Both the position numbers and the translations under genes were made by a program. Below are positions 9,728-63,403 of a stretch of 64,000 nucleotides of DNA, in pieces. Source of the stretch: Eledone cirrhosa (taxonomy: Eukaryota); NCBI GenBank assembly GCA_964016885.1, contig OZ024740.1, forward strand, positions 278,442,001-278,506,000, in the 5' to 3' direction. Each line of letters opens with the position of its first letter. The stretch's first letter is position 1. The notes beneath the pieces were generated by a model that was not told the origin of the DNA, ran no database searches, and saw only the letters and a program-made list of their open reading frames with translations.

Positions 9728-10329
9728 ACACTTTATCCAGCAACAACACAGGCCCTGTTCATTCACAAATTTTTATTAAGTTTTCGCTGTGACCTATTCT
9801 CTCTTTCTCTCTACTTGTCGCTATCAACTCTTCTCCTATCTTTCTTTCGCGCCCTTTCTCCCTCACACTTTTACTCTCCCTCTCTCTACTAGCTACCCCA
9901 CTACTTCCGCTGTTTTTCTCGACTGCCTCTCTTTTCTCTACTCTCGCGTAGGTCAGACCTGTTTTTTTTCGCTATCTGTTTCACCGTTCTTAAGTCCAGT
10001 AGCTGTTGTTGACAGCCTTTCTTTATCTTCCGTTGCTACTACACGTGCTTCTCGGTATGTTTTTTTCTGATTTTTTTCCGTTTTTCTTTCTTTTTTCCCT
10101 TCTGTTATATTTTTTTTTCTCTCTCTCCTTTTTTCCCCCAATAACTTCCTTTAGTCATTGACACACTGGAGCTAGACATCTTGTCTTTAATGCGTAGAAA
10201 TCTCCATGACCTCCAGAAGACAACTGATGAAGGGAAATCCCCCCCCCCCCACCGTTTATGCTTTCCTCTTATTTACAAGTACACTTTATCCAGCAACAAC
10301 GCAGCCCTGTTCCTTCACAAATTTTTATT
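9728..10329 (+). mobile_element. Non-coding element bounded by ~50-bp direct repeats (pLTR-like), carrying the permuted hammerhead-like motif
   Basis: tacactttatccagcaacaacNcag(g)ccctgttcNttcacaaatttttatta at 9728-9778 and 10280-10329. CT-rich interior; ends at a (CA)n(TA)n tract. Confidence 0.6.
10131..10240 (+). ncRNA. Permuted, pseudoknotted hammerhead-like RNA motif (family 1)
   Basis: ttttccc..caataact/agtcattg hairpin, acaca, ctggag cta gaca TC ttgtctt taatgcgta GAAA tctc catgac ctccag aagacaa CTGATGA agggaaa. Confidence 0.65.
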
Positions 10330-12615: not shown

Positions 12616-13194
12616 GTCGTTCATTTTATCTTAACTTTGAAACCTAAGAATTTCCGACACGATATTGTTTTTTCATTATATACTCTTTTACTCTTTTACC
12701 TGTTTCAGCCATCCGGCTGAGGCCATGCTGGGGCACCGCACATTCTTAATTTCAATTATATGGTAGCTACTACTATTAAAATACCTGCCGGTTTTCTTCT
12801 CCTGTCATTAAATCTTAAATTCGTGAGTATTGTTATATAATGCTACGCAGTGACATTAATAAAGTTTATAAGGCATATTAATAACAGCGACATTTCAACG
12901 TTCCTAAGCCAATCTCATTTTGAAATTATAATGTAACTTCATTCAAATTAATTTCTACAATGTTGAAATATATTTCTCTGTATCTTATGTTTCCTGAACG
13001 TAAAGCACGCTGCCGTATTTATAATTAATTATGTTACGTAATTAATACCCTTACGTAATTAATACCCTTCAGGAAAGAGGACCAGAAAGTATGTCTGGTG
13101 TTTACTAAAGAAATCGTTATTACAAATATATTTATATCCTGAAGTACGAGCTGAAAAGTTTATAGGCTGACTGTAAAGGAGTGATGCTAGAGCT

Positions 13195-16100
13195 GTGAAG
13201 ACTTGCAGTTGTCCACAGCTATGCATGGTCAACCTTGACAGAACGCATAGACAGGGACCCGGTTACTGGAAGCTCAACTTGTCCTTACCGGCAAGTAAAG
13301 CTTACAGGGACCGGATTAGCACTTTAGTTAAGGAGCGGTTGACGGGCGCCATCGTCAACAGCAGGTGGTGGAGATCTCTCAAAAGAGAGATTAGAGTAGT
13401 CTCTATAGAATTTAGTAAGGAGTTAGCCTCAAATAGAAATAGGAAGGAAAGGGAGTTGGTAGATAGTGTAGAAGAGGCAATTAGAAGCGGCGGCGTGGCC
13501 AGAGTGCTAGCGTCGAGAACGGCCCTGGGCCAGTTCTTCGACGCGAAACACGAAGGCTGCATCGTCAGAAGTAAAATAGTGCTCTGGGAAACGAGGAGGC
13601 CAAAGCTGTTAGCTGGGCCCGCGTGACAGAAGCCAAAAGAGGGAGTAGATCCACTATCCGGTCTTTGCGAGACCAGGATGGCCGGGTGATCCTTGAACCT
13701 AAGCAGGTGTGCGAGGCTTTTCAAAAGCACTTTGCCAGATTGTTCGGAAGGGGCAGGGAGCCGGTTGGGGAAGTGGACTTCGGTCCATACCTCGACGGCC
13801 TGCCGCGTCTCGGACAAAGAGGCGAAGTCCTGCGAGGAGCCGATTTCAGCCGCTGAGATAGAGTACGTGCTGAGCCAATGCGGCAAACGCAAATCCCCGG
13901 GTCTCGATGGTCTTCCATACGAACTATATCTAGCTATGCTGGACTTGTTCCCCGATCTCCTCGAGGCAGTCTACTGCAACTGGCAACAGAACGGGAGAAT
14001 TCCATGTGCTGTGACCAAGGGCGTAGTCACGTTGGTGAGGAAGGACGAGAACAAGGGGGACGATATAAGTAATTTCAGGCCCATAACTCTCCTAAATACA
14101 GAGTTACAGATTTTGGCCAAGGTGTTAGCAAAGAGGTTGGCGCTTGTCGTGGACAACCTGGTGGAAGATGCACAAACATGTGCTATCCCGTCCAGGTCCA
14201 TCCACGACAACCTCCACCTCATGCGATACATCATATAGAGGGTTGGGAGCGAACCCGGCTTTGGTGGGGCCCTGATCAACTTGGATCAATCTAAGGCGTT
14301 CGATAGGGTCGACCATGGTTACCTGGATGCGGTGCAAGCGGTGGCAGGTTTCGGAGGCTGGATCACTGCCATGCACAGCAGCCGCATCTGCTCTAGAATC
14401 AAGGTGAAAGGCTACCTCTCGGAGCCATTCGAAATCGCGCGATCCATCCGACAAGGGTGCCCTCTCTCCTCCCTTCTGTATGTAATGACTCTAGAGCCAC
14501 TGCTGCGGAAGTTAGAGTTGTTGCAGGGCATCCCGTTGGAACCGGGATTGCGGAAAGCGGTGTCGGCCTACGCCGATGACGTAACAGTAATGGTGTCGAC
14601 GGCCTCGGAAATCGGGGCGATCGGCACCTTACTGGAGGAGTACGAAAGGTTTACAGGGACTAAGCTGAACCGGGACAAGTCGATCGGTTTGCAACTCGGC
14701 ACGTGGAGGGGCAAATCGATGCCCTCCGATGGCGTCGTCGGGCGCTGGACGGAGGGCCCAGTGAAGTTGCTCGGGGTCTGGTCCGGACCAGACCTCCAAG
14801 TGGAGAAGAACTGGGGTGAAGTAACGAACAGTGTTTTTTCACTGACCCAGAAGTGGGTCGAGTGCAAACTGTCCCTGAAAGGTCGGGCGGAGGTGGCGAA
14901 CGCTTATATAGCGTCCGTCATCTACTACCGCCTGACCGTCGTGCATTGCCCAAGGGAAACGTTCGTCAAAATGGAGCGCGCACTCTTCTAATTCCTTTGG
15001 AAGAAGCGGGCTCCTATGGTAGGAGATCCATCTGCTGTCAACACCCTTCGAAAGGAGGGCTGGGGCTGCCGTGGCTGATGATGCGTAAACACGCATTAAG
15101 GCTACGGCACCTCCAGGTATTCCTCACCGGTCAACCGGTGTGGGCCCCGTTTGTGAGGCGAGCCTTTCCCAGGCTCGTCTCGCTCACCAAGCTGCAGTCC
15201 TGGGTCAAGCAAAGACTGAGAAAACTGGGCGCCTGGCACACCGAGTGTGCCCAGGCGCTCACGGCTCTCTGGCAGGCGGACCCGGCTGTCAGTGGAGAAT
15301 CCACCTCGTCATTCTATAGAGGGCTGGTGGTTAGCAGGTGCGGCGACGCCCTCGGAGAAGCCCTAGGCATGGAGGAAAACGAACTGGCCAACTTGTTCGG
15401 TAGGACATTCAGCCTGGGACCTATGGATAACTTCCAGAGGTCACTGGCCTGGAGTGCTACCGAGGGGCTCTGTCCGTTCGAGAAAAGCTCTACAGACAGG
15501 GGCGCCCGGGTAGGGACCCCTCGAAAAGGATCTGTCCCAGATGCGTGTGTGACGAGGAAACCGTTGCACACTCATTGGTATACTGCTCGGACATCGCTGA
15601 TCTGTGGGGCTATGTCGAACGACTGCTGTCACAGGTGGGACAGATCCGGTTGACCACCGAGTCTATTGTAACGATCAAGCCGCCTCCCTCTTCAAAAACG
15701 AAGGAGAGGCGGTGTTTCTGTGCGTAATAGCCATGGTGAAAGAGGTTGTATGGTGGACGCGTCTGAAAGGACTGAGGTCAGACACCTTTCTCTCTGGCCA
15801 ACAACTGGTCCGTTTCTTCCGATATCATTTCGGAAGAAGGATCAGGATAGAGAGAGAGGTGCTGCACCCCAGCCGTTTTTATGAAAGATGGGTGAAAGTG
15901 GCGAGAATGGCCCGTGTGAATGGGCCTTCACTCTACATCAGACTGTAGGTGAGAAAGATGACAGATCAAGGGATCACCCTCTCTCTGTGCTCCTGAGGAG
16001 AAGGGTTGCACACTTTTTCGGGGGGGGTGCGACCCCCCAAGGCGCCTCCTTCCTATTGAGAATTTTGTTATTCAAATTATTTTTGTTATATTTTATATTT

Positions 16101-24780: not shown

Positions 24781-25153
24781 TATACGATATTAAACAAATG
24801 GAAACTATATTTATAAAACCATATTTATTTCATTATACATATTTCGGGGATACCATATTAAAAATATGGCATGCCTTCTTCAGATAAAATACAATATATA
24901 AACAGTTTTATAAATAATTTTGACGTACCATAAATATTGATCAACTTTTATGTAAGAAGTTGGTTTGGTACCAAACCAACTTCTTGCATAAAAGTTGATC
25001 AATATTTATGGTACGTCAAAATTATTTATAAAACTGTTTATATATTGTATTTTATCTGAAGAAGGCATGCCATATTTTTAATATGGTATCCCCGAAATAT
25101 GTATAATGAAATAAATATGGTTTTATAAATATAGTTTCCATTTGTTTAATATC

Positions 25154-43722: not shown

Positions 43723-43997
43723 CATGGTGGCTGCCAACTCGTTTTCGAGTACGACCACTATTTTATATCGATGCGCTGAACAAGTGTGATTTTTAGTCCA
43801 GCCAGCGACTTGAAAACTCTGGTACAAACACTACACTTGTGACAATTATTGACACATAGTGCTGGGCCCATGGCACCATGTGACGACAAGTGCTGAGAGA
43901 TCTCCAGATATACATACATACATACATACATACATACATACATACATACATACATACATACATACATACATACATACATACATACATACATACATAC

Positions 43998-45237
43998 ATG
44001 AAGAATACATTGAGACAGATGGCACTAAGGAATACTGGTGGAACCTGAAAATAAAAACTGCCACCAGATTAAAGCACAACCGGCCTGATATTGTAGTTTG
44101 GGACCACACATTGAAAACGTGTTCTGTTGTGGAGATCAGCTGCCCACTTGATGTAAACGTTGTCAGAAAAATACAGGAGAAGGAGGACATCTACGGACCA
44201 TTGATGAGGAGTTTACAAATCCAGTATCCAAGATACACCTTTAGCTTCATACCCATCATTATTGGTGCTACGGGTTATATACTAACCCGCTTGGACCAAA
44301 GTATGACTGAACTTGGATTTGCGGACAAAAAGCGCAGCTCCCTAATTCATAGTCTACAAATGGCTGCGATAGCTGGCACCTTCAAAATTTGCAAAACATT
44401 CTTGCGATTCAAGGGATGACAATTTCTTTTCTTTTACAACCTTGCCACCAGGAAGGTGGCCGGTCAAAAAAATATACTCAAAATTAAGAGAAAGAGAAAA
44501 CATACATACATACATACATACATACATACATACATACATACATACATACATACATACATACATAAAGGGGAGGGCCATCAGCTGACAATAAATGTAGGCT
44601 ATGTAAAGCAAAGATCGAGGATGTAAGCCACATTGTTGCCAGCTGCGAAAGAATGTCATCTCGCTACTACCTCCCCACGAGACACGATGGGATAGCTAGA
44701 ACCATCTGGAACGCACTTCGGAAAACAACATTAACAACAAACGAGGAAGAATTTATTGAGACAGATGGCACTAAGGAATACTGGTGGAACCTGAAAATAA
44801 AAACTGCCACCAAATTAAAGCACAACCGGCCTGATATTGTTGTTTGGGACCACACATTGGTCTTGTGGAGATCAGCTGCCCACTTGATATAAACGTCGTC
44901 AGAAAAATACAGGAGAAGGAGGACATCTACGGACCATTGATGAGGAGTTTACAAATCCAGTATCCAAGATACACCTTTAGCTTCATACCCATCATTATTG
45001 GAGCTACGGTTTATATACCAACCCGTTTGGACCAAAGTATGACTGAACTTATATTTGCGGACAAAGAGCGCAGCTCCCTAATTCATAGTCTACAAATAGC
45101 TGCGATAGCTGACACCTTCAAAATTTGCAAAACATTCTTGCGATTCAAGGGATGACAATTTATTTTCTTTTACAACCTTGCCACCAGGAAGGTGGCCGAT
45201 CAAAAATTTATACTCGAAATTAAGAGAAAGAGATAAC
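43998..45237 (+). mobile_element. Two tandem 3' ends of an R4/Dong-like LINE (restriction-like endonuclease), separated and flanked by (TACA)n
   Basis: HIVASC..SSRYYLPTRHD, WWNLKIKT..KHNRPDIVVWD, VEISCP, PIIIGATG. Identical 3' UTRs end at CATA repeats (44500 and 45237). Confidence 0.88.
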
Positions 45238-47649: not shown

Positions 47650-49110
47650 AAGTCCTGTATGATGTTAATATGGACTTTAGACCTACACCACTTTCCTTGC
47701 GTGAGAGGTATAGCCTATACACATCGCTATTGGTGTTAAAGTTTCCAGTAACACCGAGCAACTTGCGAGTTCTTACATCCATCTCACTTAGTTCTTGCAA
47801 TGACCAGCTCAGCAGGCCAAATGTTGATGTTAGGATAGGGACAGCAAAAGTATTGTAGGCTATATACGTATACGCTGAGGACATATTTTCTTTACTCTCC
47901 TGAGGTAGTCAGTCCGCGTTCTCTCCTTGTTTATGGGTCTATCATATAACATTCTCATCCTGTCCAAGATATCTGTAGCTGTCACCTGACTATAGAGGCT
48001 GTATTGTCAAGCCATTCATCTCTAGATTACCAGAAGAGGCCATGACCCTTCCACATTTTACTGACAAATATACACATTTGGACTCACCAAATTTCATTCT
48101 GATGCTGGCAAAAACATTGTGTAATGAGGTCCAATTGTTTTTTGATATAGTCAATATTTGGCCCATACAACTTCATGTCATCGACAAAGAAAAGATGGGA
48201 GATACTTCTGGACCCACTTCTATGACCACTTTGTTTTGTGAGCAGGTGTGATAGTGGGTTTAGTGAGAGGACAAAGCGCAGTACTGATAAGCTATCACTC
48301 TGAAAGATGCTTTTCTGGTAGTGTAGCGTATCAGTTTCAATTTTCTCCTTTTCACCCCTGAGTATCAAATTGGTGGGCCGTTTCTTGGTCAGGCGTTCAA
48401 TAGCAGCTATTAGTGGTTGTGGGACTTTGGATAATTGTAAAGCCTCAATAATCCACCCATAAGGTACACTATCAACATCCTTCTGATAGTCCAGCCACAC
48501 CGCAGTCACGTTCCTGCAATTCCTCACTGTTTTCCTTATATCATTTTATTAATCAGTAGCTGATCTATGCATCCCCACACCTTCTTTCCACCAGCTTGCT
48601 CAGGTTTTATAATGTTGGGGGTGGCACAATGATCCTGCAAGAACAGATTAAGGTTCCTAGTATATAATTTGTACATGATGTTCTGGCAGGCGATTGGGCG
48701 GTAATTTTTAGCAAGAGTGGTTTGGATATTTTGGGTAATGAGGAGAGTAGTGACAGTTGATAACCATTGGGACAGTTCTTGTGTGCATTTGATGCTTTCT
48801 CTATACAGCCGTATGAGATATTATCCTGTTCTTTTGTAGGGATGTCATTTACAGAGATTGAGCTTTTCCCATTGAAGCTGCGATAAACTGATTTAGGATC
48901 TCTGACAAATAATCTATTTAGCATTTGCCGTTTATGTGTTGTTGATTTATATCTTAATCTTTCCGCTATTGTTTCAGCTGGTGTAGTTGGGAGTTTAGAA
49001 TTTTAAATCTTGTATCTCTAAATAGCCTCTCTAGTTTTTTCTTAAGTTTTCCCAATGTCGTGTGAAGTTGTTCTCTATGCACAGTGATCTGTGAAATACT
49101 TCGTCTTTTA
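47650..49110 (-). pseudogene. Decayed RT region of an R4/Dong-like LINE
   Basis: EQAGG..VWGCIDQLLIN, WLDYQK..DSVP.GWI, YQKSIFQSDSLS..FVLSLNPLS, ISHLFFVDDMKLY, YRYLG.DE, AYNTFAVP, NSDV.RLYL.RK. Frameshifted. Confidence 0.88.
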
Positions 49111-50199: not shown

Positions 50200-51247
50200 T
50201 CTCTCCTTTCTATCTCTCCTTTTCCCCCCCGTCAAACTTGGGCGAAATTCTTTCCTTGCTCACATTTCAACCAGGTTTGATGGTCTTTTGTCTCTTGTTC
50301 ACGATTTCACCGAGTTTATATTCATAGAGATCTGGGACTTGTCTATTTCTTCTCACTTTCCGTTGCTTAAACTTTTTTGTTGTTACCCTGGCGTCCCCTT
50401 TGTTTACGTGTCCCAACGACTTTTTTTAGCCGTTGTTCGCACCAACCCGAGGCATATGGCCCTTAAAGCGATGAAATGCCTAGGACGGTTGGAGGGTCAC
50501 CGATGAAGGACTCACTTTTTCATATGTATCCCATTTGCAACGCCGCAGCTCCATTATTATCATATTTACACATATATTTTTTCCATGCTGCCACTCGTCT
50601 GTTTCGTTCCTTGTATCTTTACCCTTTCTAGCAGTTTCTCTCTCTGTTAGCCTCCTCCTCAACTTTCACTCACTCATTCTCTGTCACTACCTCTCCTCCT
50701 CCTCTTTCCTCCTCCTCCTTCAAGTTTGACCTGTGTGTAATTCTTTTCTCGCGCGGTCTTGACCAAGCTGGTATGGAATTTTTTTCTCTCTCTCTTTCGT
50801 CTGCGACTTCACAAAACTTACGTTTACCGAATTCGTAGACCAGACCCCTTTATCTTCTTCTTCTTCTTCTTCTTCTTCTTCTTCTTCTTCTTCTTCTTCT
50901 TCTTCTTCTTCTTCTTCTTCCTCTTCTCTCCTTTCTATCTCTCTTTCCCCCCCCCCGTCAAACTTGGGCGAAATTCTTTCCTTGCTCACATTTCAACCAG
51001 GTTTGATGGTCTTTTGTCTCTTGTTCACGATTTCACCGAGTTTATATTCATAGAGATCTGGGACTTGTCTATTTCTTCTCACTTTCCGTTGCTTAAACTT
51101 GTTTGTTGTTACCCTGGCGTCCCCTTTGTTTACGTGTCCCAACGACTTTTTTTAGCAGTTGTTCGCACCAACCCGAGGCATATGGCCCTTAAAGCGATGA
51201 AATGCCTAGGACGGTTGGAGGGTCACTGATGAAGGACTCACTTTTTC

Positions 51248-52192: not shown

Positions 52193-54447
52193 CAGGGCTT
52201 CCCAACCTTTTTTCACTATGGACCCTCAAGCAGAATCCTTTTTCGCTATGGACCCCCCCCCCCCAAGAGCATTCAAAACTTAGGACATTAATTCAACAAA
52301 CAAAATGTATTCGTAATGATCAAAGAGTCCTACGGGCACACGTTTTTGGTGAGAGCCTTGTGGCTGTTTATTATTCACGAGAGCAGAAATCCGTGGTTGT
52401 AGGTCACTCGGACGGAGCCTCATTTCTGGATTATCGTTCAAGTGCAAGCTCCTTTGTTGCTTTGTGAATGAATGAAGTAAAAGCGAAAAGCCCTTCTCCA
52501 CCAAATTGGACATTGGTAGATTAATTATAAATGGTTCCACCTTTCTAAACAAGGTTTGATATTTGATCGAGCTTTGCAGCCACGCTTTGACCCAATTTTT
52601 CTCAGAGGCCTGAATCAAGCGCTCCTCAGCAATGGCCTCCCACAGCTCAATCTGGACGCATTCAGGTTGGTTCATGACATCCTCCATTGTCATGGTATGA
52701 AGTAAATCAACAAAGGGTGGTATGCTCAACTGTAGAAGATCCTCAAAACGAGTTTGAAAGTTATCATGCAAGAAAGACGAATGATCCACAATAATTGTTT
52801 GTAACTCACAATCAATTTCCTTGCCATCCAAACTAGAAAAATGACAGAAGTCATGCGTCATGGCTTTCATTTTCCAAATCACCAATTTGTTCATGAATGC
52901 CTTTATAACTTGTTTAGCACGTACGATGTTCATATCCTGGTTTTGCATGGATAAATTCAGTTCATTGAGTTTCCGAAACATCTCTTCCAAGTACAATATA
53001 GCAATCTTGTTATCAATAAGTGAATTCCTCAGAACAGTGTCTCTGTTCTGCAAAAATTCCAAAACTTTGTCAAACAGTACGACAAATCTCATGAGACAGT
53101 TACCCATTGAAAGCCAACGTACCTCTGTGGAATAAACCAGCCGATGAAAGTTTTCGTCACGACAAGCATCCTGGAAAAGCCTGTCTTGAAGGGCTCGTGT
53201 TCTTATTTTGTTGACGGATGAAACAACCGTTTGAAGAATGGCCATAAGATCACGGTTACCAATATTTTTTGCAACCAAATTTTCACGATGTAAAACTCAA
53301 TAGTAAACAATGAATAGTAAACACGCTTCTATCTTCAATTAATCTGCACACAAATCCTTTTCTTTTGTCGATCATTGACGGCGCACCACCTGTGAAAATG
53401 GAGATCATGTTATCCATGCTAATATCATTTGTCTTTAAAAAGCCGGTGACAGCGTTGCACACTTGTTCGCCTGTAGTGTTGATGGGAGTTTTCATAAAGA
53501 GCATCTCCTCACATATTCTGGAATCTTTGATGTAGCGGACAAAAGCAAGGAGCACAGACTGATTTGCAAAGGTACTTTCATCAACAGTTAATGAAAATTT
53601 GGTGTGTCGCAAGTCTTGAATAAGGATGGACTTGACATCATCTGCTAAATCAGTTATTCGGGATGAAATGGTATTGTTGGATAAAGGTATGCTGTTGAGA
53701 ACAGACTCTGGATTAGAAATATTAGCCACTTTATATGCTTCCATGATTGCAGGTTTGATGAGGTCCTCAGCAATTGTATGCGGTCGACCTTGTTTGGCAA
53801 TCAAAAGCGCAATATTGTACGACGCGGTGAGTCCAGAAGCGCTAGTGCTCTCGATGAGGAATCCTTTCAATTTTGATGAGGAAGAACGGGCACTGTCACT
53901 GAGCGCTTTGAAGTATTCTTTAGGTTTGTTGACCAATGAGGGATGACACTTGTTGAGGTGTAAAGAAAGTTTGGCGGGTTTCATTGATGCATTCGTCAGT
54001 TGTGTCAAACAAATAAGACACTGTGGTAGTAATGGATTGTTCTTGCTGCTAATAAATCCATATTGAATATAAGAGGGATCATACTGCCTACATTTCTTCT
54101 TGCTTTTGCTCATATTTAATTGTTATGGGAAGAAACCTAAAAGAGAAAAATGCAATTAAGAAGCTTTTTAAAATTTACAATTTACAATTCAAATTCCAGA
54201 AATGAAGACGTTTCTTCTTGATGCTTGAAAACGTATGTACCGTACTTAAAACGATTTAATTGAAAAGGAAAGAAAATAATTGAAAATATTAAGAAAAGTG
54301 CAATAACTTTTACTAAATCAACTCATTTATTATACATTTAATTGTGTACATTCCATTATGTACATTTAATTCAGCATTTTTCTGTGGTCCCCTGTAATCG
54401 CGCCATGGATCCCTGGGGGTCCACCTGGACCCCGTTGGGAAGTCCTG
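52193..54447 (-). mobile_element. Full-length Buster/Charlie-type hAT transposon, inserted into a SINE head
   Basis: TIRs cagggcttcccaac / gttgggaagtcctg; 8-bp TSD ccttaacc / ccttaact with central TA. Confidence 0.92.
52280..54113 (-). pseudogene. hAT transposase (zf-BED + DDE), frameshifted near 53290, second catalytic Asp mutated
   Basis: RQYDPSYIQYGF, PQCLIC..SMKP.KL..HL...H, FSLTVDEST, FTGGAPSM (expected TDGA), HCLL|HRENL, TEVRWLS, LVEKGFS. Confidence 0.9.
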
Positions 54448-62332: not shown

Positions 62333-62949
62333 GAAAAGAGAGGTTTGAAAAACAAAGCTAGTCATAGGCCATCCAGTAGTATATATACATATATACGATT
62401 GTGAATATATGTGTGTATTTACATGTTTGTGTAAATACTCATGAGAGAGGGTTACACCTACTTGAAAACTGCGATGTTTGTAGTCTCACTTTCTTTTTAT
62501 TTATTGCTAGCTAATCGGCTTCGAAAGTTTAGAGTTGTTCTTGTGATACACAAATGTTTATCACTATGAAATCTGATGTGCAGGCACAATTTACGCAATT
62601 TTGTTTTAAACGCTAACCCCACCCAGCGGAAATAATGGTACTAACACCTTGAAGCAACATACAGATGGCAGGCATTTGTTGGGGCGGTCGATGTATCACG
62701 TATGAAGATTTTTATTCAGCAATAATAAAATAACGCCATCTCTGTAGTTTTATCACTCAGGAGTAGTATTGGAAAAAACATCACAAATCTTTGGTTGCCG
62801 AAGCTGTTTCCTATGTTGAAACGTTGTCTGTGTCTGTTAGTAGCTGGAGCCTCGGTCTTGCTATATTGCTGTATGTATTTGTCATCATGAGAGCCCTTAG
62901 GAATGTATATATATATATATATATAAATAAAAATAGACAAGGGTTAAAA

Positions 62950-63053
62950 TGTCCTCTTCAGTAGTCTTCTGATTTATCGTTGGTATTTCGGCGCATTAAA
63001 GACTATATACCTAAAATCAGTGCGAGCGATAACTCAATTAAGTTATCGAGACA
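62950..63053 (-). ncRNA. Permuted, pseudoknotted hammerhead-like RNA motif (family 3), in a CT-rich element ~62925-63280 between TA tracts
   Basis: tgtct cgataact..agttatcg ctcgca ctgattt ta ggta TA tagtctt taatgcgcc GAAA tacc aacgat aaatcag aagacta CTGAAGA ggaca. Confidence 0.7.
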
Positions 63054-63403
63054 GTGGGAAAACGGGGGGAAGAAAACAAACACATGGTGGTATGCAACGA
63101 AAAGAGAGGAAAATTAGAGACAAGTCAATGAATCACGTGCGAATAAGCCCGACATATCAAATTGACGAGAAGAAATAGACACGTCCGAGCTGCGAGAAGA
63201 TTGAGAGAGGAAAGAAATTCAAGCAGGTCAGACGGGAGGAAGTGAGAGGGGGGGGAGAAGCAGAGAGGAAGCGAGTGAATATATATATATATATATATAT
63301 TATATGGATACATACACACACACACGGACACACACGTTTATATATAACATACATATATATATATATACACACACGTACACGTATATATATATATACATAT
63401 ATA

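Follow-up and report, generated by a model that had tools for sequence, protein, structure and literature searches.

Covariation supports a type-SGC hammerhead variant with a split stem II in a high-copy retroelement of Eledone cirrhosa

Introduction

On the minus strand of a 64,000-nucleotide stretch of the Eledone cirrhosa genome (GCA_964016885.1, contig OZ024740.1, positions 278,442,001 to 278,506,000; hereafter the window), positions 62950-63053 hold a complete hammerhead core whose blocks follow the non-circular order cleavage site, GAAA, CUGAnGA. A sequence-only reading of this locus proposed that its stem II is split and that a second pseudoknot forms, which raises the questions of what kind of ribozyme the motif represents, how its strands pair, and what carries it through the genome. 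Our answer is that an SGC-order hammerhead core likely acts here as a single knotted, self-cutting RNA that releases unit-length RNAs of a non-coding retrotransposon, a reading we hold with a probability of roughly 0.7.

Type-SGC hammerheads are so far described from metatranscriptomes only, with 583 found, five validated, and none in the genomes of known organisms (Eckert et al. 2023, PMC10085705); ribozymes of this type do cleave (PMC10085705). 

A hammerhead core in type-SGC order

All hammerhead core bases (CUGAnGA, GAAA, and U16.1-H17) are found in the motif, and stems I and III close this core with covariation. The order site, GAAA, CUGAnGA, together with the pseudoknotted stems, is that of the type-SGC permutation. 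Canonical types I, II, and III are distinguished by a circular block order and by their Rfam scores, and the motif has neither: Rfam gives no match at the gathering threshold in the window, and no hammerhead match up to E = 10 in 62800-63300. The 8 weak Rfam matches obtained at E up to 10 were judged to be chance. A twister, suggested by a UAAUGC linker that resembles the twister consensus, was also considered and rejected, as there is no Rfam match and no CAAGY loop, and hammerhead stems explain the strands. The linker itself, UAA(U/A)GC at motif positions -9 to -3 (window 62998-62992), looks like the twister 5' consensus, probably by coincidence, and its UAA is partly set by our search patterns.

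The motif is abundant. A core pattern that leaves out GCG has 22,615 matches in the 3-Gb genome vs 70 for the reversed control, and with GCG included the numbers are 16,896 vs 0. Within the window, an SGC descriptor that includes stems I and III has 2 matches (i.e. the window copy and family 2), compared with a mean of 0.13 over 30 shuffles. Family 3, to which the window copy belongs, has 1,081 candidates in the genome, and the 40 that were scored stand at 95-100%. The spacing from U16.1 to GAAA is constant across the families sampled. Searches with one strict pattern returned 5 matches from a metagenome collection and 4 from GTDB, all of them stemless, and 0 from a viral collection; the repeat is also contained in one sequencing run.

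The window holds other hammerhead-like sequences. A separate family with the ordinary order CUGAnGA...GAAA occurs at 24883(-)/25056(+), 28880(+), 29628(-)/29767(+), 24289(-), 35360(+), 4761(+), and 63682(+), partly as inverted pairs, and more ordinary-order motifs, outside the families described, lie at 34080 (+) and 339 (+).

Strand layout of the window copy

Read 5' to 3' on the minus strand, the first half of the RNA begins with UGUCU (TGTCT in the DNA, 63053-63049), the 5' strand of a closing helix A; family 3 mostly has TGTCC here (15 of 20 copies, with TGTCT in 3). It is followed by the 8-bp hairpin B, CGATAACT/AGTTATCG (63048-63041/63034-63027), which covaries and is predicted independently by RNAalifold, and by CGCA (63024-63021), the 5' strand of helix C and displaced partner of the stem II strand on the GAAA side. 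Then come CUGAUU, the 5' strand of helix D (63015-63020), with two-sided changes in 6 of 6 pairs and RNAalifold support; UUA, the non-bulged strand 3n-2n-1n of a predicted kink-turn (63012-63014), where U at 2n is non-standard under the rules in PMC5061560; and GGUA, the 5' strand of stem III, with U16.1 (63007) and A17 (63006) behind it (63006-63011 in all). By analogy with other hammerheads, the predicted cut would lie between 63006 and 63005, and the stem I strand UAGUCU that follows it (63000-63005) shows two-sided changes in 5 of 6 pairs.

The second half opens with UUAA and continues with UGCG (62995-62992), the 3' strand of helix C, then CC, the latter C being C11.1 (62990-62995 together). 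The GAAA core (62989-62986) leads into UACC, the 3' strand of stem III (62982-62989 together), and AACGAUA (62975-62981), the predicted bulged strand with its 3-nt loop AAC, G1b, A2b, and UA. After the helix D 3' strand AAUCAG, one A, and the stem I strand AGACUA (62962-62974), the motif ends on the CUGAAGA core (62955-62961) and GGACA (62950-62954), i.e. G10.1 and the 3' strand of helix A.

In the window copy no core base is lost, and stems I, III, B, C, and D are unbroken. A C-to-U change at 63049 weakens helix A in a 5-bp register but falls on the spare base if the G pairs with C11.1. Folding z-scores of this copy are weak (-0.8 and -1.1). Elsewhere in the window, two family-2 copies stand in tandem at 50407-50514 and 51133-51240 (+; span 50407-51240), and a family-1 copy at 10131-10238 (+) is decayed, its stem III, hairpin B, and helix C all containing mismatches.

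The strands named by the sequence-only reading are all found on the minus strand where it placed them, and the three parts it described recur in families 1 and 2 as written. Its strings exist in the window, but three are mutated single-copy variants, the commonest family forms being TGTCC, ACGCA, and AGTTATTG. The local GGACA..TGTCT hairpin (62954-62935) that it offered as an alternative does appear in the RNAfold minimum-energy fold of the window copy with the 3' flank included. This competing hairpin could form through a second, family-3-specific TGTCT (62935-62939, -) at -3.0 kcal/mol, compared with -3.7 for the TGTCT/GGACA duplex and -5.4 for the family-type TGTCC/GGACA. The downstream TGTCT is absent from the downstream flanks of most other families, and the hairpin is unconserved beyond family 3 and its nearest relatives; as modelled, it might lower the activity of the window copy.

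Covariation of the helices

Pairing was assessed in a MAFFT alignment of 30 hand-picked representatives of 37 copies, with 34 pairs counted. In this alignment 93.4% of cells are paired and 24 of 34 pairs show two-sided changes, figures that are not probabilities because the structure was derived from the same sequences and the rows are related; kinship among copies inflates the covariation counts. None of 500 shuffles is as good, and slid structures pair in 27-46% only. Larger counts come from 136 distinct full-length copies that pass a hairpin-B filter, a set that excludes chance matches and loci picked for 5' breaks. The pattern behind it fixes none of U16.1, H17, the 10.1-11.1 pair, helix A, or G1b, A2b, and A1n.

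Helix A shifts across families from GUCC/GGAC to AUCC/GGAU and UUCC/GGAA. At one position it is G-C in 14, A-U in 5, and U-A in 5 of the representatives, a count in which the six rows that are one base shorter after CUGAnGA fall out of register, and it is fully paired in 118/136 full-length copies.

For helix C, the sequence-only reading had staked its second pseudoknot on covariation between cgca and its partner, and this covariation is found. Among the 30 representatives, the flanking pair flips between U-A (20) and A-U (6), and an inner pair is C-G in 23 and U-A in 3. As the first search pattern had a fixed GCG, a GCG-free search was made; the non-GCG copies fetched amount to 19 rows, 11 of them from one GCA family in which 10 of those 11 carry UGC for CGC, the remainder being 5 GUG rows (wobbles) and 3 single decayed copies. 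The change from CGC/GCG to UGC/GCA counts as a single evolutionary event made up of two CpG-type transitions. Helix D swaps again inside the UGC/GCA family (CCAACG/CGUUGG, CCGACG/CGUCGG, and CCGAAG/CUUCGG). The junction-side pair of helix C is broken in family 3 and unpaired in 28 of 136 copies overall. The split of stem II and the second pseudoknot are supported by covariation across families, as are the core, its order, helices A, B, C, D, I, and III, and the 10.1-11.1 pair.

A rival view of these strands is that nothing beyond the SGC core and stems I, III, and D counts, and that the 5' strands (A, B, and CGC) form a separate conserved element outside the active fold, e.g. a binding site for a reverse transcriptase or protein, or an off-switch. 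The sequence of hairpin B is conserved beyond pairing needs, CGC/GCG is near-invariant with a single, CpG-type internal swap, family 3 has its competing hairpin, and unaided RNAalifold on alignment A1 recovers B, D, and III but not helix A. However, helix A takes three pair types at one position, helix C has two two-sided changes, and a GAAA-side strand deprived of C would have a stem II of one pair and no stacking partner. We regard such a separate element as very unlikely.

Alternatively, the motif could be a catalytically dead structured relic, amplified passively with the repeat, and decay mutations in many genomic copies fit this idea. Against it, features free of selection by our pattern are kept: U16.1 is present in 133/136 copies, H17 is A or C in 135/136, and the 10.1-11.1 pair and all stems persist; moreover, family flanks are 55-58% alike vs 76% for the core. 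We give a dead relic hardly any weight, and continue with a knotted, self-cutting RNA as the preferred reading.

What remains of stem II

The 10.1-11.1 pair is Watson-Crick in 98 of the 136 copies, G.U in 22, and unpaired in 16, with four pair types. It is unpaired in 7/30 representatives, and family-1-type copies often lack a standard pair. On these counts stem II keeps one pair, after which a four-way junction (II, A, B, C) is predicted. The earlier suggestion that stem II is replaced by a multi-helix junction is therefore borne out as to the predicted junction, but not as to a full replacement, as 120/136 copies still pair 10.1 with 11.1. A one-pair stem II that functions together with a pseudoknot is known (PMC3088659).

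In two families without an extra base, C11.1 faces a G (19/20 copies in family 3, 3/3 in the L096 family). Since C11.1 most likely takes the first G of GGACA as its partner, the closing helix of family 3 would be GACA/TGTC, not 5 bp; the GGACA/TGTCT pairing proposed earlier is upheld as a closing helix, in this shorter register.

A predicted kink-turn between helix D and stem III

The loop between helix D and stem III fits the kink-turn (k-turn) consensus, i.e. stem III, three bases, G, and A opposite N, G/U, and A. A 3-nt bulge, G1b.A1n, and A2b.G2n lie between two helices, and the window copy is non-standard with its U at 2n. Of the 136 copies, 132 have G1b, 136 have A2b, and 134 have A1n; position 2n is a G in 94 copies and a U in 39, and U.U is the commonest 3b-3n combination (55/136). 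The consensus rules, and the folding of Kt-23 with U at 2n, are given in PMC5061560, and the window copy resembles Thermus thermophilus Kt-23 in this base. The succession of canonical helix, 3-nt bulge, G.A, and then A.G or A.U is like that of box C/D-type kink-turns. On sequence grounds a k-turn is predicted in the motif, and we found no natural hammerhead with a k-turn in the literature searched. Both this signature and the identity with the type-SGC permutation were overlooked by the sequence-only reading.

Both strands connect helix D with stem III, yet the hammerhead fold keeps the far ends of these helices away from each other. Eckert et al. (2023, PMC10085705) raised the same problem for a one-strand link, asking how the interaction helix reaches the far end of stem III, and the predicted k-turn is a possible answer.

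Proposed fold and comparison with HRIMA-1

In the fold we propose, a four-way junction would be built from the 10.1-11.1 pair and helices A, B, and C, with C acting as the continuation of stem II. The distal three-way junction, made up of stem I, C, and D, would be that of HRIMA-1 (where its arms are stem I, stem II, and the interaction helix), and the k-turn would bend D back to the far end of stem III, so that a single RNA closes the knot. The motif would in effect be an HRIMA-1-like circle opened inside stem II.

HRIMA-1 and the SGC variants of PMC10085705 share with it the S-G-C order and a short linker from stem I to stem II. As in HRIMA-1, an extra helix joins the other strands of stems I and II, and helix D is thus the equivalent of the stem I-II interaction helix; the distal junction is near-identical, with C, one base, and the 5' strand of D on one side and the 3' strand of D running into stem I on the other. 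HRIMA-1, in contrast, has a continuous stem II of ~5 bp with C11.1-G10.1, a fixed AUGUU/AACAU stem I, and ends that open between interaction helix and stem III, and it comes from metatranscriptomes only. Here, stem II is one variable pair plus the predicted four-way junction with its partner strand at the 5' end, the D-III link is closed by the k-turn signature, and the motif resides in a large eukaryotic genome. The motif lacks the continuous stem II that HRIMA-1 has after CUGAUGA(U)G and before CGAAA, as well as the fixed stem I, and 0/257 copies satisfy the published SGC descriptor in its terms for core and stem II.

The same pairs could also arise in a strand-swapped dimer, with the nested part (A, B, D, k-turn, and III) formed within each RNA and stems I and C formed between tandem units or molecules, so that cleavage needs a second copy. 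Covariation looks alike for pairs in cis and in trans. In one molecule, the mutual crossing of helices C, D/III, and I makes a demanding three-layer knot, and nested folding yields A, B, D, and III with a loop that keeps the strands of stem I and C unpaired. Motif copies are often tandem, and animal type I hammerheads are reported to cleave as dimers (PMC7761336). However, published SGC ribozymes cleave co-transcriptionally as short constructs (PMC10085705), the linker from S to G is 4-5 nt, near the 3 nt typical of HRIMA-1, and the conserved k-turn signature would supply the bend that one molecule requires for D to return to stem III. We consider the dimer unlikely and favor the single knotted RNA.

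A fuller version of the monomer reading is a non-circular hammerhead, encoded in the genome and carried by a retrotransposon, that folds into a three-layer knot with both a k-turn and a four-way junction in stem II, and whose cleavage a host L7Ae-family protein (Snu13/15.5K) could switch through the k-turn; the same architecture could explain Penelope-like element (PLE) families that have a hammerhead core but no fitting stems. We put this forward tentatively, as a possibility with somewhat worse than even odds.

The repeat element

The window copy sits in a (TA)n-flanked, 5'-truncated family-3 repeat (62919-63279, -) that represents 361 bp of a ~530-bp tandem unit and is 96% identical to locus L005 over 361 nt; tandem periods in this family are 521-546, with one of 232. 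Many families of such non-coding tandem repeats exist, with one motif per unit and periods mostly of 400-770 bp. The context is one of tandem, inverted, and 5'-truncated repeats: copies are often inverted, and many end in (TA)n 20-80 nt past the core. At one locus (G000:C3:9651579-9654722), at least 6 family-2 units stand in tandem with an exact 623-bp period, matching what rolling reverse transcription on a circular template should produce. Most families, otherwise diverged, also share a GCAAC-N3/4-GCAG-like word ~25-60 nt 3' of CUGAnGA (e.g. L007, L072, and L074); it lies near a second preferred 3' end of the repeats and is possibly a recognition signal for the mobilising enzyme.

PLEs show partial tandems, inverted 5'-truncated copies, a short 3' tail, and (TA)n targets (Craig et al. 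2021, PMC8557442), and the repeats carry the same insertion marks. They differ from PLEs in that no RT/GIY-YIG ORF occurs in the unit or at a fixed position beside it, and canonical PLE ribozymes are minimal type I (PMC8557442). Metazoan non-LTR retrozymes, with type I hammerheads in units of ~150-300 bp, are thought to be moved by PLEs (PMC7761336); they too consist of non-coding tandem units with one hammerhead each, but here the ribozyme is SGC and the units mostly span 400-770 bp. A search of 254 loci (598 kb) for a linked RT gene was negative, tblastn with two PLE-like ORFs giving scattered matches with no fixed geometry. Mobilisation may be in trans, by a PLE. Cleavage after H17 would yield a monomer, possibly circular, RNA, to be copied in trans by a Penelope-like reverse transcriptase.

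The window itself contains a 613-aa RT-like ORF at 25762-27603 (+) with a GIY-YIG-like C-terminal end. We take it to be Neptune-like by its motifs; Pfam returned no family for it. Other ORFs, presumably a broken DNA-transposase-like pair and fragments of non-LTR retrotransposons, lie at 52280-54122 (-), 13177-15653 (+), 43853-44419 (+), and 48084-48545 (-).

Distribution of 5' ends around the predicted cut

If reverse transcription runs to the end of the cut RNA, 5' junctions are expected at N1.1, i.e. -16 from G12. Genome-wide patterns that demand two mismatches just before a set start were used to find such junctions, and the matches were classed by eye. At -16, 22/28 matches are true junctions (5 are internal changes and 1 is ambiguous), and several of these junctions show 2-4 nt of microhomology. 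By comparison, 1/11 matches is true at -22, 6 nt upstream of the predicted cut. Downstream, 6/10 are true at -10, where the pattern is blind to (TA)n joints, and at -13 there are 43 matches, with 13 of 30 inspected being true, 7 of them in T-runs that pool -13 to -9. In an unselected sample, which leaves aside 11 rows with internal indels or divergent sequence, 4/18 truncations between -3 and -37 fall at -16/-17.

By these counts, 5' ends are rare just upstream of the site and common at and just downstream of it. This distribution is suggestive of cleavage, a sign weakened by the downstream controls and to which microhomology contributes. Nested exact counts in family 2 (394, 289, and 62) were rejected as a truncation test, as 76/92 inspected copies differ by subfamily (GGTATA), not by truncation; the copy-extension procedure behind this inspection halts falsely at a T-run in hairpin B.

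Implications for hammerhead diversity and Penelope-like elements

Judged from comparative sequence data, the motif is a real variant of the type-SGC hammerhead, backed by covariation and carried by a high-copy genomic retroelement. We found no earlier description of such a motif in the literature searched, which lay mostly outside subscription papers and included part of the SGC alignments in the PMC10085705 supplement. Under the three-block rule, CUGAnGA and its stem II strand move together (PMC10085705); the motif departs from this rule, and descriptor searches would miss it for this reason.

The supplement of PMC8557442 uses the labels HHR_core (10 occurrences) and HHR_half_core (8) for Naiad families that fit no descriptor. 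Three GCGNNGAAAT strings have 0 matches in that supplement, where line breaks could hide matches. The SGC order is suggested as a candidate for the PLE families so labelled. As a high-copy genomic element with many diverged families, the permutation can now be assigned a host and a likely role, and it comes with natural covariation data.
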